A DNA stretch of 64,000 nucleotides from Nitrospirota bacterium (lineage in GTDB: Bacteria; Nitrospirota; UBA9217): contig CAWCKW010000006.1 in NCBI GenBank assembly GCA_963796285.1, positions 152,090 to 216,089 on the forward strand, given 5' to 3'. Of this stretch, positions 5,185 through 20,861 are shown piece after piece; position 1 is the first letter of the stretch, and each line of letters opens with the position of its first letter. The position numbers and the translations under genes were made by a program. Under the pieces are notes generated by a model that was given only the letters and a program-made list of their open reading frames with translations, was not told where the DNA came from and made no database searches.

Positions 5185-5260
5185 GGGCCCATAGCTCAGC
5201 TGGTAGAGCTACCGGCTCATAACCGGTTGGTCCCAGGTTCGAGCCCTGGTGGGCCCACCA
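5185..5260 (+). tRNA. tRNA with CAT anticodon, most likely tRNA-Ile2 (lysidine-modified)
   Basis: 76 nt cloverleaf GGGCCCA...TGGGCCC-ACCA, anticodon arm ACCGG-CTCATAA-CCGGT, GTTCGA T-loop; paired G1-C72 argues against initiator; position after rpoD as for ileX. Confidence 0.93.
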
Positions 5261-6758: not shown

Positions 6759-7139
6759 AATCAGAGCGGGTGAGGTGATCGCTCTCCGGCAACGGGGGGA
6801 GGAAAGTCCGAGCTCCGCAGGGCAAGGCGGTCCCGAAACGGGACAGGGGGCGACCCCATGGACAGTGCCACAGAAAAGAAGACCGCCCCGTACAGGGGTA
6901 AGGGTGAAACGGTGGGGTAAGAGCCCACCAGGCCCGGCAGCAATGCCGGGTGCTTGGAAAACCCCGCCTGGAGCAAGACCACATAGGGAAGCGTCTCCCG
7001 AGCAATCGGGAGTAAGGACGGCCCGTCCGAGACTTCCGGGTAGGTCGCTCGTGCCTTCGAGCAATCGAGGGCCCAGATAAATGACCACCACTCCCGGGCA
7101 ACCGGGAGGACAGAACTCGGCTTACGACCCGCTCTGATT
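6759..7139 (+). ncRNA. rnpB: RNase P RNA, bacterial type A
   Basis: GAGGAAAGTCC, CAGTGCCACAGAAA, GGGTGAAACGGTGGGGTAAGAGCCCACC and ACAGAACTCGGCTTA motifs; P1 AATCAGAGCGGGT/ACCCGCTCTGATT. Confidence 0.97.
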
Positions 7140-11760: not shown

Positions 11761-12009
11761 TTAGCTGTGCGATGAAGCGGTTGACTGCGACGGTCTTGCC
11801 GGCCTCGGCCCCGAACCGGATGGCCGCGCGCGCTTGAGGAGCTTCCGCCTTCGCTTCTCCGCCTCGATCTGCTTGTTCTTTTTCTTCACCGAGGGCTTTT
11901 CGTAATGACGTCGCTTCTTCAGTTCGCCCATGAGGCCGTCCTGCTGGAGCTTCTTCTTCAGGTCCCGCAGGGCCTTTTCGATGTTCTGGGACTGGACCCT
12001 TATCTCCAC
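11761..12009 (-). CDS. rpsU: 30S ribosomal protein S21 with C-terminal extension
   Basis: IEKALRDLKK...KRRHYEKPSVKKK; GTG start overlaps the upstream gene. Confidence 0.9.
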   Translation of the reverse strand: MEIRVQSQNIEKALRDLKKKLQQDGLMGELKKRRHYEKPSVKKKNKQIEAEKRRRKLLKRARPSGSGPRPARPSQSTASSHS

Positions 12010-12326
12010 GATTTTCCCCCTCCTCCGCCGTATCCGCCGCGATCACCCCTGCCGCCGCCACCGGAACCCGAGCGGTCAGTCTTGGGTTTTGCCTCGTTCA
12101 CCGTGATAGTCCGGTCCATGAATGTGGTGCCGTTCATGGCAGTGATCGCTTTGGCCGCGTCCTCGTCCGACGCCATCTCCACGAAACCGAACCCTTTGGA
12201 CCTGCCGCTCGCCTGATCGACGATCAGCGTGGCGGATACGACCTCGCCAAGCTTCGAGAATGCCTCGCGTAAATCCTCCTCGTGGGTGTTATACGATAAA
12301 TTTCCAACATACAGTTTCTTCGCCAT
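12000..12326 (-). CDS. RRM RNA-binding protein with Gly-rich tail
   Basis: RNP2 LYVGNL, RNP1 KGFGFVEM, GGGGRGDRGG tail. Confidence 0.95.
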   Translation of the reverse strand: MAKKLYVGNLSYNTHEEDLREAFSKLGEVVSATLIVDQASGRSKGFGFVEMASDEDAAKAITAMNGTTFMDRTITVNEAKPKTDRSGSGGGGRGDRGGYGGGGGKSWR

Positions 12327-13123: not shown

Positions 13124-13276
13124 AAATGAAAAGGACAAATAAGATATGGCAAAAAGCAAAATTGAGATAGCCAATACAAACGGTCCCGTCCCGCATTGAT
13201 TCGTATGATCGTATCTTTGTCGTATGAACGAAAGCGATGAAACCTCGCATATCCGCGGTTGTGCTATACTTTCGGC

Positions 13277-14110
13277 ATGTCCATCCCTACTCGTATTCTC
13301 GGAAGAACCGGACAGCTCGTCACAAGGCTCGGCCTCGGCGGCGAAGGGGTTCTCAGGACCTTTGGGCAGGACCAGGCCGCGTATGCACTGGTCAACCGGG
13401 CGCTGGATCTGGGCATTACCTATTGCGAATCCGCGCGGGCTTACTCGGGAAGCGAGGTCTATTACGGGAAGGCGCTCGGGGAGCGGCGGAAGGAGATCTT
13501 TCTCGCCAGCAAATCCCACAACCGCAACAAAAAGGGCGCGCTGGCCCATCTGCATGAGACGCTGACGAATATGAAGACCGACCATCTGGATCTCTGGCAG
13601 GTACATGACGTGCGGGAGGCAGAGGATATCGCAGCTATCTTCGGGCCGGGCGGCGCTATCGAGGCCTTTGTCGAGGCAAAGCAGCAAGGGAAAACACGGT
13701 TCATCGGCATCACCGGCCATCACGATCCTTCCATCATAAGGAAGTGCATCGAGCAATTCGATTTCGATACCGTTTTGATGCCGGTCAATCCTGCAGAGCA
13801 GAAGTTTAAGAGCTTTATCGAGAACGTCCTGCCCCTGGCTCGGGAGAAGAACATGGGGATCATCGGCATGAAGGTCTATTTACGCGGATACGCCTCTGGT
13901 TTACCGTGGTACGCCAGCATGGAACCTTTCCTGCGTTTCGCCCTCTCCCAGCCAATAACCAACGTCGTCATCGGCTGCGACGACATCGCACAGCTCGAAC
14001 AGAATGTTGAATTCATCGGTTCATTCGAGCCCATGACGCAGGAGCAGCAGCAGGATCTCATCCGAGACGTGTCTCCCTTTGCGCGGCAGCTCATGTATTA
14101 CAAACCATAA
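13277..14110 (+). CDS. Aldo/keto reductase
   Basis: RILGRTG...LGLGG, FLASK, TDHLDLWQVH, RFIGITGH, IIGMK. Confidence 0.92.
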   Translation: MSIPTRILGRTGQLVTRLGLGGEGVLRTFGQDQAAYALVNRALDLGITYCESARAYSGSEVYYGKALGERRKEIFLASKSHNRNKKGALAHLHETLTNMKTDHLDLWQVHDVREAEDIAAIFGPGGAIEAFVEAKQQGKTRFIGITGHHDPSIIRKCIEQFDFDTVLMPVNPAEQKFKSFIENVLPLAREKNMGIIGMKVYLRGYASGLPWYASMEPFLRFALSQPITNVVIGCDDIAQLEQNVEFIGSFEPMTQEQQQDLIRDVSPFARQLMYYKP

Positions 14111-14419
14111 TCCCTGCGACGTTCGAATAAAATTTGGTGATATCATCCTGGGAGAAGGATCCAATCTCGAAGGAGGTCTTGTCTATGAGGCACTCATTAA
14201 TGCGGGGTGAGGTGAGTATTATTGGGAACCGGTGAAAGTTATGTTCAACCAGTAATAATAGGGACTCTAGAATCAAAAATGATCTGATCTCAAAAGATCT
14301 CAAGGATATCCTGAGCAGACTATCCTTTTCTAGGAACAGGGGGAAATAACAACAGGATGTTTTACTTTATTAAAGGGCTGGAATTGTACGTCACATAACA
14401 GGAGTGTCTAACAGAAGAG

Positions 14420-14618
14420 AAAAAAAATTGTGCCTTGAGTTTTGAGTGTTTGCGAGGCTGGTTCCAAAGTATTTGCCTTAGCAGATGCTTTAGGCTACCC
14501 TCTCTGTTCCTGTGAGGGCTTGCACACCGCATGATGCATAGAGGCGTTCTGATTACTACGGTACCTCTCAACTCAAAACCCAAGGCGAACTGGTAAACTT
14601 GCAGACGATTAAAGCGTT
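14420..14618 (-). ncRNA. Candidate stand-alone structured ncRNA, 6S RNA-like
   Basis: Own promoter (TTGCTA-16-TGcTATACT), 16-bp closing stem 14432-14447/14571-14586 with a G-U pair only on the minus strand, central bubble, inner stems, U8 tail; no credible ORF. Confidence 0.55.
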
Positions 14619-14763
14619 AGTGATAGTATAGCACAGATTTTCAATTTAGCAAGTTCTTGCCGACTATCCCCACTGGGCATATCCTTACCCTGGATTCCCA
14701 CCACTTAACAAGCAGTTATCAAAACCCTGTAGCCTCCCGAAGATGAGTGGAGTATAATTCGGC

Positions 14764-15417
14764 ATGAGTAATAAAAAGGCACAATTCTCGGTACGTCCTT
14801 TTGACAAGCTCCGTAAAACAATGGAGCAACGCGAGGCATTAACTATGCCCGCGACTCCTCGCCAAAAGAAGAAAGAAGACTATACCGACGAAGAGCTGTT
14901 CAGCCGCGAGATGGACGACGTCCTGGTGATCGAGGAATTCCGTTCACTTACCTGCGCTCCTTGCCCACAAAACAAGAGAACGGCACTAGTGCCGCGCGAC
15001 CCTGATAAGGAAGCGCTTGCGGAACTCTGCGATATCACGGAAGGGCTGCTGCCGATCCATCTGCCCGATACCCAGGAATATGTGGAATGGGTCCATCCCG
15101 CGTTTCGCGATGATATCATCCGGAGCCTGCATGAGGGGCGGTTTTCGGTCCAGGCATATCTCGATCTTCACGGGTTCATTGTTCCCGAAGCAGAGAACGA
15201 ATTGGACGAGTTCATTTTGGACGCGCTGAAAAAGGGCCTGAGCTGCATCAAGATCATCCATGGCCGCGGCCTTCGATCGGTCAAAGGCGCCCGGCTGAAG
15301 CACGCGGTGGTGAAAAGACTGTCCGGCCATTTCCGCAGAGACATCATCGCCTATGTGACTGCACGCCAGTGCGACGGCGGCCTGGGTGCGCTGTATGTAC
15401 TCTTGAGAAAAAAATAG
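14764..15417 (+). CDS. Smr domain protein (SmrA/SmrB-like)
   Basis: LDLHG, IIHGRGLRS, GGLGALYVLL. Confidence 0.9.
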   Translation: MSNKKAQFSVRPFDKLRKTMEQREALTMPATPRQKKKEDYTDEELFSREMDDVLVIEEFRSLTCAPCPQNKRTALVPRDPDKEALAELCDITEGLLPIHLPDTQEYVEWVHPAFRDDIIRSLHEGRFSVQAYLDLHGFIVPEAENELDEFILDALKKGLSCIKIIHGRGLRSVKGARLKHAVVKRLSGHFRRDIIAYVTARQCDGGLGALYVLLRKK

Positions 15418-19252: not shown

Positions 19253-20861
19253 TTACGTTGTATTTGTATTCTGCATCTCCCGCTTGAACTCCGAGGTGAA
19301 GTGGAACTTGATCTCGGGGTAGGCCTCGATCATATTCCGCAACACCCAATCCGATTCAGCAAGAAACACGATATTGCCGTCCTTGTCCGTGGCAATGCGG
19401 TCCGACTTGAATCTGCAGAATTTGTCCATTTCCTTTTCGTCGCTCGCGGTGATCCAGCACGCCTTGTAAATTTTCATCGGTTCGAACCTGCAGGCCGCGT
19501 TGTACTCGTGCTCCAGCCGGTACTGGAGCACGTCGAACTGGAGCTGGCCCACCGTGCCGACGATCCTGCGGTTGCCCTGCTGCTGGGTGAAGAGCTGGGC
19601 CACGCCCTCGTCGGTAAGCTGCTCGATGCCTTTTGCAAGCTGCTTGGATTTCGACGGGTCGAGGTTCACGAGCTCCTTGAACACCTCGGGCGAAAAGGTA
19701 GGGATGCCCTGGAACATGAGCTTCTCGCCTTCCGTGAGCGTGTCGCCGATCTTGAAATTGCCCGTATCATACAGGCCGATCACATCGCCGGGAAAGGCCT
19801 CGTCCACAATGCTCTTGCGCGCCCCCAAAAAACTCGCCGGGCTGGTGAAGCGGATCTGTTTTCCCAAACGGACGTGAAGGAACATCTTGTTCCGCTCGAA
19901 CTTGCCTGAGCAGACCCGGATGAAGGCAATGCGGTCGCGGTGCCGGGGGTCCAGGTTTGCGTGGATCTTGAATACGAAGCCGGTGAAAGCCGCTTCGTCA
20001 GCGTTCACGATGCGCTGGTCCGTGGGTCTGCTGCCGGGCGTGGGAGCGATCTCGGTAAAGGTGTCCAACAGTTCCTTTACGCCGAAGTTGTTGATGGCGC
20101 TTCCGAAGAACACCGGCGCAAGGTCGGCGCGCGAGATAGGCATTGACGTCGAAGGGGTTGTGCGTACCTTCGATCAACTCCACGTCCTCCCGGAGCTTTA
20201 CTGCATAGTCGCCAAGCTGCTGGTCAAGGACCGGGTCGCCGATGCCCTGGATCTCGAGCACGTCGTTCGCGACTCTGACGCCGCCGGGCCGGAAGAGGTA
20301 GAGGCTGTTGTTATAGAGATTGTAAACACCCTTGAACGAGGTTCCCATGCTGATGGGCCAGGAGAGCGGCTGGACCTTGATATTCAACTTCGTTTCGAGC
20401 TCATCCAGAAGCTCGAAGGGATGCTTGCCCTCGCGGTCAAGCTTGTTCACGAAGATGATGACCGGCGTTTTGCGCATGCGGCAGACTTCCATAAGCCGCA
20501 GGGTCTGTTCCTCAACGCCTTTGACACAGTCGATGATGAGGATGACGCTGTCCACGGCGGTGAGCGTACGGTACGTGTCCTCGGCAAAATCCTTATGGCC
20601 GGGCGTGTCGAGCAAATTGATCTTGAGCCCGTTGTAGTCGAAGCCCATGACCGACGTTGCCACCGAGATGCCGCGCTGGCGCTCGATATCCATGAAATCC
20701 GAGGAGGTGCTCTTCCTGATCTTGTTCGACTTGACCGCGCCTGCCACCTGGATCGCTCCGCCGAAGAGCAGAAACTTTTCCGTCAGGGTGGTCTTTCCCG
20801 CATCCGGGTGACTGATGATGGCGAAGGTCCGCCGCTTATTTATTTCGTCTGTATAGCCCAT
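19253..20861 (-). CDS. prfC: Peptide chain release factor 3, one apparent frameshift near 20128
   Basis: [25 protein letters not shown] in ORF 19998-20861; [22 protein letters not shown] in ORF 19253-20143. Confidence 0.93.

Follow-up and report, generated by a model that had tools for sequence, protein, structure and literature searches.

6S RNAs are mimics of open promoters, as stated in the section of PMC8876501 cited here. According to that section, the E. coli RNA is recognized through two key elements: the apical arm supplies a '-35-like' region, and the 3' strand of the bubble a '-10-like' one. RNA polymerase copies the 5' strand of the bubble into product RNAs, and these refold and release 6S; a truncated 6S-1, composed of the bubble and two short arms, completes this cycle with approximately 10-fold lower affinity (PMC8876501, same section). 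We analyzed a 64,000-nucleotide (nt) stretch of DNA, further called the window, from a Nitrospirota bacterium (GTDB lineage Bacteria; Nitrospirota; UBA9217; GenBank assembly GCA_963796285.1, contig CAWCKW010000006.1, positions 152,090 to 216,089). All coordinates refer to the window, and the RNA gene in question is read on its minus strand. There, at 14652-14420, a sigma-70-type promoter is followed by a 155-nt rod-shaped RNA core and then by eight U residues (U8). We think it likely that 14618-14420 on this strand encodes a stand-alone small RNA, which would be an accessory, strongly diverged paralogue of 6S RNA and is a predicted promoter mimic.

The RNA resembles the 6S/SsrS family (Rfam RF00013) in its build, a rod in which a closing stem leads to a central bubble, followed by an interrupted internal stem that ends in an apical loop. 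It also resembles this family in size, as its core has 155 nt and its predicted primary transcript (14618-14420 on the minus strand) approximately 199 nt, and it shares with the RF00013 consensus the apical signature GGUGUGCAAGCC...GG(A/U)AGCCUAAA. Like the canonical 6S gene of its own genome, it has its own sigma-70-type promoter and a U run past the closing stem. It differs from RF00013 in that the GGG...CCC pair is replaced and the CCCACCUGG-type motif of the 3' bubble strand is kept only in part. It also differs from 6S/SsrS RNAs in its shorter closing arm, in a predicted 5' leader of approximately 32 nt, and in being accessory, with 1-4 copies in 37 of the 64 genomes of the host family.

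Bacillus subtilis 6S-2 (BsrB) is likewise a second 6S-type RNA alongside a canonical one. For both RNAs single-sequence folding gives near-isoenergetic structures other than the rod, and an alignment is needed to reveal it; in the portion of PMC10578484 cited here, RNAfold is described as mispredicting 6S-2, and the rod as emerging from alignment only. Citing Wehner et al. 2014, the same portion places second 6S paralogues mainly in Bacilli and closely related Firmicutes. Our RNA, unlike 6S-2, comes from another phylum and has up to four copies compared with one extra; it is known from sequence and is too divergent for the Rfam model. Ms1 is another 6S-like rod outside the canonical 6S family; it is longer than our RNA and replaces 6S in its hosts, whereas our RNA coexists with 6S. 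In the cited excerpts of PMC4191392 and PMC9130861, Ms1 of mycobacteria and actinobacteria is a 6S-like rod that interacts with RNA polymerase and binds the core enzyme. scr3559 of Streptomyces coelicolor was called '6S-like' from its predicted fold and lies outside RF00013 (PMC8539372, in the excerpt cited); here the likeness is by description only, and the phylum is different.

The rod fold and its support

Covariation shows the predicted RNA to be a rod in which a closing stem of 16 + 4 base pairs (bp), a bubble of approximately 17/17 nt and an interrupted internal stem lead up to an apical hairpin. Its features are listed below in transcript order; the promoter elements, closing stem, second helix, bubble and ACAA-U8 end were read directly from the sequence.

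14653-14760 (-): conserved block upstream of the promoter, from an alignment of 13 A-type loci with their flanks
14652-14647 (-): promoter -35 element TTGCTA
14633-14625 (-): extended -10 element TGc-TATACT, after a 16-nt spacer from the -35 element
14618-14587 (-): predicted 5' leader, approximately 32 nt, its start site inferred from the promoter
14586-14432 (-): 155-nt 6S-like RNA core, from covariation and covariance-model scores
14586-14571 / 14447-14432 (-): closing stem, 16 bp with one G-U
14567-14564 / 14457-14454 (-): second helix GAGG/CCUC
14563-14546 / 14474-14458 (-): central bubble, 18 nt opposite 17 nt
14545-14542 / 14478-14475 (-): internal stem GCCU/AGGC
14537-14535 / 14483-14481 (-): internal stem GCA/UGC
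14532-14529 / 14488-14485 (-): internal stem AUGC/GCAU
between AUGC/GCAU and the apical hairpin (-): internal stem GC/GC
14528-14494 (-): apical module GGUGU-GC-AAG-CCCUC-loop-GAGGG-UA-GC, common to canonical 6S
14518-14514 / 14502-14498 (-): apical hairpin CCCUC/GAGGG with an 11-nt loop at 14513-14503
14493-14489 (-): CUAAA after the apical module, part of the signature
14431-14420 (-): ACAA spacer and U8, the latter at 14427-14420

Pair counts were made on A3, a structure-blind MAFFT alignment of 45 distinct copies. In this alignment 91.7% of the cells of the rod were paired, and 23 of its 38 pairs had changed on both sides. None of 500 shuffles reached the observed values, and slid controls gave 30.5-50.5% of cells paired. 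The part of the internal stem composed of GCA/UGC and AUGC/GCAU (columns 56-64 / 110-117) was 92.7% paired, with six of seven pairs compensatory. The GCCU/AGGC helix was paired in 77% of cells, partly because the variable 5' bubble region is misaligned (L044, for instance, is off by 1-2 columns). The closing pair is G-C in 22 copies and A-U in 20, and the bubble strands have a median length of 17/17 nt across copies. The long inverted repeat at the locus is this covarying closing stem. We regard the conservation and the compensatory changes in 45 distinct copies as the decisive evidence that the element exceeds chance. Together with the invariant loops, found across 11 of the 19 genera of the host family, such changes show purifying selection on the putative RNA. 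In single-sequence folding the minus strand reached -61.4 kcal/mol (z = -3.0; 1 of 200 shuffles as good), and the plus strand folded more weakly (z = -1.9; 10 of 200 shuffles as good).

By minimum energy, the window copy folds into a four-way junction, of which the RNAalifold consensus is a partial version. The helices specific to the junction were 64.1%, 71.8% and 88.3% paired in A3; the last of these, a local GCCU/AGGC hairpin, contained no compensatory pairs. Over the 45 copies the median gap between the rod-constrained and the minimum-energy fold was 2.8 kcal/mol. We rejected the junction as the structure, since the covariation counts favour the rod. We also rejected AUGC/GCAU as a pseudoknot, as it belongs to the 6S-type internal stem.

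An earlier reading of this DNA, further called the sequence-only reading, had proposed the rod and had mentioned a three-hairpin junction as an alternative. The elements that it described are all present, namely the promoter TTGCTA-16-TGcTATACT on the minus strand (14652-14625), the closing stem with one G-U, GAGG/CCUC, the interrupted stems, the apical hairpin and U8. The bubble was also found, with a size of 18/17 nt instead of the given ~17/15 nt. Homologues with covariation, which it had named as a check, were obtained as the 45 copies with compensatory pairs described above, and these bear out the rod. Its three-hairpin junction is identical to the minimum-energy fold, whose extra helices fare worse in the pair counts.

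Relation to canonical 6S and distribution of the family

We built two covariance models from this RNA family only: R1 on the RNAalifold consensus structure and R2 with the rod structure. Scores of the window copy were 177.9 bits (R1) and 172.4 bits (R2). Outside the host family R1 gave weak matches of 26.9-43.8 bits, which were full-length alignments with the same core, and 13 of them became loci L079-L091. Six of the 13 are RF00013 matches above the gathering score of 46.4 bits (79.9-127.2 bits), and four further ones are sub-threshold RF00013 matches (35.6-46.1 bits) at the same place and on the same strand; L081 was scanned with RF00013 at the gathering threshold only. L087 and L089 gave no RF00013 match at E <= 1. 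All 14 tested 6S or 6S-like loci were scored by R2 at 28.4-49.9 bits. When R2 was run over the whole own genome at E <= 1, the two copies of the RNA scored 172.4 and 156.7 bits; apart from these and their reverse strands, the sole match was the canonical 6S gene at 28.4 bits (E 0.0086).

Homology to 6S is shown by alignment to be concentrated in the predicted apical arm. The RF00013 consensus has there the line gGuGuGcAaGCC-stem-loop-stem-GGAAgCcuaAA, followed by a helix equivalent to AUGC/GCAU. The apical arm of the window copy, GGUGUGCAAGCCCUC...GAGGGUAGCCUAAA, matches certified 6S RNAs column by column (alignment A4), and the invariant columns of A3 lie mostly in the apical module. We consider it very likely that the family is a real, selected RNA gene homologous to 6S. 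The proposal of a 6S-like RNA in an atypical context gains support from the models, which were built from this family only and recover Rfam-certified 6S, and from the RF00013 signature in the apical arm. A new class of non-coding RNA, which had been offered as the other possibility, is not supported.

The own genome carries a canonical 6S gene on another contig (103.5 bits with RF00013), and canonical 6S was found exactly once in 60 of the 64 host-family genomes. Because canonical 6S coexists with our RNA, the latter is a diverged paralogue and not a replacement. The term 'divergent 6S', used in the sequence-only reading, was thus right about the relationship, but the RNA is an extra paralogue and not the organism's own 6S.

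The organism is known solely from metagenome assemblies, and its genome comprises 3.58 Mb in 13 contigs. The second copy of the RNA lies on the same contig, 51 kb off, and is 73% identical to the window copy. BLAST relatives were detected in 17 of 36 other host-family genomes and in none of 24 genomes from other families of the phylum. With R1 at E <= 1e-10 we obtained 54 matches in 37 of 64 host-family genomes, 1-4 per genome, in 11 of 19 genera. The RNA was present in four of the eight genomes of its own genus apart from G000, and it was absent from the near-complete genomes G003, G006 and G008 of this genus (98-100% completeness). We observed at least two types of copies with different bubble sequences, and multiple copies may share one genome. 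The R1 scores were 104.7-184.4 bits on the forward strand vs 19.2-31.1 bits on the reverse strand. The minus strand is fixed as the RNA strand by this asymmetry, by the promoter and U run, and by the G-U pairs.

Further, we scanned a degenerate pattern of the apical region over one genome per species, approximately 185,000 species. This yielded 38 loci, 34 of them with the label Nitrospirota, Nitrospirae, Nitrospiria or Nitrospiraceae; the remaining four carry the labels Aquificaceae, Acidobacteriota, Syntrophales and 'uncultured bacterium'. Full-length R1 matches were obtained for 36 of the 38 loci. The 'uncultured bacterium' locus was partial, and the Aquificaceae locus gave no R1 match. L039, from an 'Acidobacteriota' metagenome-assembled genome (MAG), and L056, from a 'Syntrophales' MAG, hold full-length copies (177.1 and 167.2 bits, respectively), and their phylum labels disagree with the 34 Nitrospirota-labelled records. 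The neighbours of L039 are Smr and HhH-GPD, as in the window.

Other Rfam families matched the element at E <= 10 only by chance and far below their cut-offs (lactis-plasmid, 17.4 bits; SAM-SAH, 11.6 bits), and the Ms1 and 6S-Flavo families gave no match at this threshold. Y RNA, retron RNA, guide-RNA scaffold, SRP RNA, tmRNA and riboswitch were rejected as identities, with no Rfam match and no linked protein gene.

Full-text literature searches, which did not cover the main survey on 6S distribution (Wehner et al. 2014), turned up no earlier description of additional 6S-type RNAs for Nitrospirota. The family would provide an uncultured phylum outside Firmicutes with 1-4 extra 6S-derived RNAs invisible to RF00013. 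As RF00013 is blind to it, accessory 6S-type RNAs may be under-counted in annotation based on that model. The family can also be viewed as a natural experiment on the indispensable parts of 6S: the apical '-35-like' module and the bubble between two arms are kept, but neither the long closing arm nor most of the 3' bubble motif is. A3 and R2 could seed a new Rfam family or broaden RF00013.

Two other Nitrospirota families contain a 6S-like RNA on the same strand as a 16S rRNA gene, 37 and 57 nt upstream of the 16S 5' end (L088:177-362 and L086:146-325, both on the minus strand, both loci at contig ends). The RNAs scored 46.1 and 40.8 bits with RF00013 (cut-off 46.4) and 43.1 and 40.8 bits with R2, and the 16S gene is an RF00177 match (L088:1-139, L086:1-88). 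The arrangement suggests that a 6S-type RNA is part of an rRNA operon leader. In other Nitrospirota families, rods at L087:1501-1660 and L089:1503-1670 (both on the plus strand) scored 49.9 and 34.0 bits with R2. Both carry the apical signature, and they may be further 6S forms missed by Rfam.

Predicted mechanism and alternative explanations

From its homology to 6S, the RNA probably acts as a promoter mimic that sequesters polymerase. It would be transcribed from a sigma-70-type promoter of its own, and it probably extends to the closing stem and the U run, either by ending there or after trimming. The bubble between the two helical arms would mimic an open promoter. The apical module of canonical 6S contacts sigma region 4, and the apical arm of our RNA would keep this '-35-like' module for the same contact. 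The RNA would sit in the active-site cleft of the RNA polymerase holoenzyme and sequester the polymerase, and its release would probably come with the synthesis of a short product RNA by the polymerase, with the 5' bubble strand as template. The shorter closing arm should be tolerable for holoenzyme binding. The extra copies probably give additional, differently regulated or tuned sequestration, comparable to 6S-2 beside 6S-1 in Bacillus.

Parts of the stretch are represented in six RNA runs. Of 16 runs labelled as probably DNA (soil, peat, sediment), 14 contain part of the stretch and two were included only as runs of the same study; these 16 were not used as evidence. The element was covered by contigs from four RNA libraries of four studies. 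As the contigs are 90-99% alike, they come from relatives and not from this strain. Those of X16, X17 and X18 were at most 202 nt long and lay within 14285-14579, and the depth of X16 peaked at 258 over 14464-14487. Positions 14584-14634 were uncovered in these three runs, and none of their contigs reached beyond 14579, which is not readable as a mapped 5' end; the adapter-joined ends of X16 at 14434 and 14579 are short inserts and not necessarily RNA ends. We treat the RNA-library contigs as a weak hint of expression.

Several observations weigh against an accessory 6S-type promoter mimic. A strong Rfam 6S match had been named as a check in the sequence-only reading, and RF00013 gave no match at E <= 10 on window positions 14200-14900. 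At E <= 10 in the own genome it found the canonical 6S only, and at E <= 1 it gave no match on L018, L027, L078, L076, L093 and L033. Because it gives no match, the RNA appears more divergent than the known second 6S copies. The 3' bubble strand AAAUACUUUGG keeps the RF00013 CCCACCUGG-type motif only partly (certified 6S RNAs of the phylum have CCCACCUGG/CCCACUUGG there), and the closing arm has approximately 20 bp vs approximately 30 bp in the own canonical 6S. For the window copy the rod-constrained fold lies 2.7 kcal/mol above the minimum-energy junction, and unaided folding gave the rod in just 14 of the 45 copies. The bubble strands cross-pair weakly (mean -4.4 kcal/mol, mean z -0.84), and the closest copies can form a short AGUA/UACU-type helix within the bubble; the central bubble may not be fully open. 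Among the RNA libraries, a 434-nt contig of X15 over 14226-14664 had a depth of 5.6 vs 9-17 at the neighbour gene. Several contigs extend past U8, so that the 3' end is only a predicted one; the contigs show neither strand nor RNA ends, and they may stem from DNA carry-over. The partly kept 3' bubble motif and the presence of at least two bubble types argue against a simple back-up role.

Because of these last two points, a change of partner remains a serious rival explanation, which we nevertheless consider fairly unlikely. The RNA would be derived from 6S and would retain its rod and apical arm, but would bind an alternative-sigma polymerase, the core enzyme (the partner of Ms1) or another nucleic-acid-binding protein. 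The strand that departs from the RF00013 consensus, the 3' strand of the bubble, is the seat of the '-10-like' element (PMC8876501, in the section cited), and Ms1 provides a precedent of a 6S-like rod on the core enzyme (excerpts of PMC9130861 and PMC4191392). RF00013 detects no family member tested, and the split of the copies into at least two types with different bubbles, together with the coexistence of several copies in one genome, fits functional diversification. On the other hand, the best-kept part of the RNA is the apical module that contacts sigma region 4, pointing to a sigma-70-type holoenzyme. The flanks of 41 loci show no protein gene linked to the RNA, and no data favour any specific other partner. 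It is also quite improbable, in our estimate, that 6S forms a small multigene family in the host family, each rod sequestering polymerase of a different form (such as alternative-sigma holoenzymes) or under a different condition. In this view the housekeeping 6S would be joined by up to four accessory rods that differ in bubble sequence and have promoters of their own, one subtype also sharing an upstream control block. If true, this would mean an RNA-based partitioning of the transcription machinery, which to our knowledge has not been described in any organism.

The own promoter, the terminator-like end, the lack of a linked gene, the variable context and the predicted single-stranded 5' leader of approximately 32 nt would also suit a small RNA that acts in trans by base pairing, or has some other function, via its leader or loop, with the 6S likeness being ancestral only. 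We find this very improbable. Seed regions of base-pairing RNAs are usually their most conserved part, but the leader is the least conserved part of our RNA, and selection is seen on the entire rod, including closing and internal stems, and on the 6S-type apical module. That the element is not functional as an RNA gene, being a decaying 6S duplicate, a miniature inverted-repeat transposable element (MITE), or a cis-acting leader or riboswitch, is largely refuted and extremely improbable, even though its presence is patchy (37 of 64 genomes; four of eight in the own genus apart from G000) and its genomic place shifts even within the genus. A MITE would leave many near-identical copies. Many dispersed copies had also been named in advance as a sign of a MITE, but we found only 1-4 diverged copies per genome, the two of the own genome being 73% alike, and so the element is not a MITE; no match to the RNA was found in viral contigs, plasmids or phages. 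The purifying selection seen across 11 of 19 genera also stands against a non-functional element. No gene is conserved downstream, and therefore the element is not a cis-regulatory leader or riboswitch; many of its neighbours are convergent or divergent.

Genomic context, promoter and transcript ends

Among 112 open reading frames flanking 41 distinct loci we did not observe any conserved neighbour (Pfam). The neighbours include DinB, flavin reductase, beta-CASP RNase, archease, poly(A) polymerase, universal stress proteins, epimerase and FBPase. Many of these genes lie on the strand opposite to the RNA, and convergent or divergent arrangements with the neighbours are common among the copies. 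In the window the RNA gene lies between an aldo-keto reductase gene (13259-14110) and a gene of an Smr-domain protein (14764-15417). As both are on the plus strand, the RNA gene is convergent with the former and divergent from the latter. Within the genus, the RNA gene and these two protein genes are on three separate contigs in G001 and G005. In G003 and G008 the two protein genes are on separate contigs, without an RNA copy, and in G006 the Smr part alone was found. The BLAST match of G005 to the window covers 14385-14726, and both flanking genes are elsewhere, on other contigs.

The sequence-only reading was correct that there is no downstream gene on the RNA strand for it to regulate: the next plausible minus-strand gene past the RNA is at 12326-12000, more than 2 kb downstream. 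This gene (12000-12326, minus strand) encodes a 108-amino-acid protein that combines an RRM_1 RNA-recognition motif with a glycine/arginine-rich tail. A coding role of the 73-amino-acid frame overlapping the RNA was rejected, as the frame is open in just 12 of the 45 copies.

In a promoter scan the promoter of the window copy scored 9/12 plus the TG extension, and five promoter-like sites were seen in 1.4 kb (1.7 +/- 1.3 expected). On its own, without relatives, the promoter match is weak and non-significant evidence. An equivalent -35/TG/-10 arrangement is present 34-44 nt ahead of the closing stem in most of the closest relatives of the window copy (L047, L054, L029, L050, L042, L040, L060, L036, L056, L039 and L041), and most of the remaining copies have TATACT-like boxes upstream. 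Transcription is predicted to start near A14618. The columns of the leader are poorly conserved in the alignments, and its sequence differs from copy to copy. The leader may be trimmed off, by analogy with the 6S-1 precursor, which likewise has extra 5' nucleotides, 11 according to the cited portion of PMC10578484. The contigs of X16-X18, none of them reaching past 14579, are a weak hint in the same direction.

The closing stem, ACAA and U8 form a predicted terminator-like 3' end, and a T run of at least four within 12 nt past the closing stem is present in 34 of the 45 copies. A simple terminator scan made no call at the closing stem and U8, because this stem encloses the entire RNA. A terminator-like hairpin, CTCAGGATATCCTTGAG with a T-rich tail, is present at 14299-14315 on the same strand, approximately 105 nt past U8. 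This hairpin and the RNA-library contigs over 14285-14420 indicate that the primary transcript may exceed the rod; alternatively, there may be a separate short transcript at 14285-14420.

Upstream of the promoter, a block of approximately 110-130 nt is kept among the closest (A-type) copies despite their differing neighbour genes; it is common to the window, L047, L054, L040, L036, L050, L042 and others. The block contains a TAAC-N5-GTTA inverted repeat and a near-palindrome centred on GGGAATCC, and on its opposite strand a TATAAT-like box stands immediately before the Smr start codon. By eye, the block was not seen at the second copy in the own genome. It may be regulatory DNA, and it is uncertain whether it belongs to the RNA unit.

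Elsewhere in the window, the only matches at Rfam gathering scores were RNase P RNA class A (6763-7139, plus strand, 270.4 bits) and a tRNA (5185-5257, plus strand, 69.7 bits). The gene of RF3, prfC (19253-20861, minus strand), is divided into two overlapping frames, 19998-20861 with a GTP_EFTU domain and 19253-20143 with EF-G_D2 and RF3_C. This split represents either a frameshift or an assembly error.

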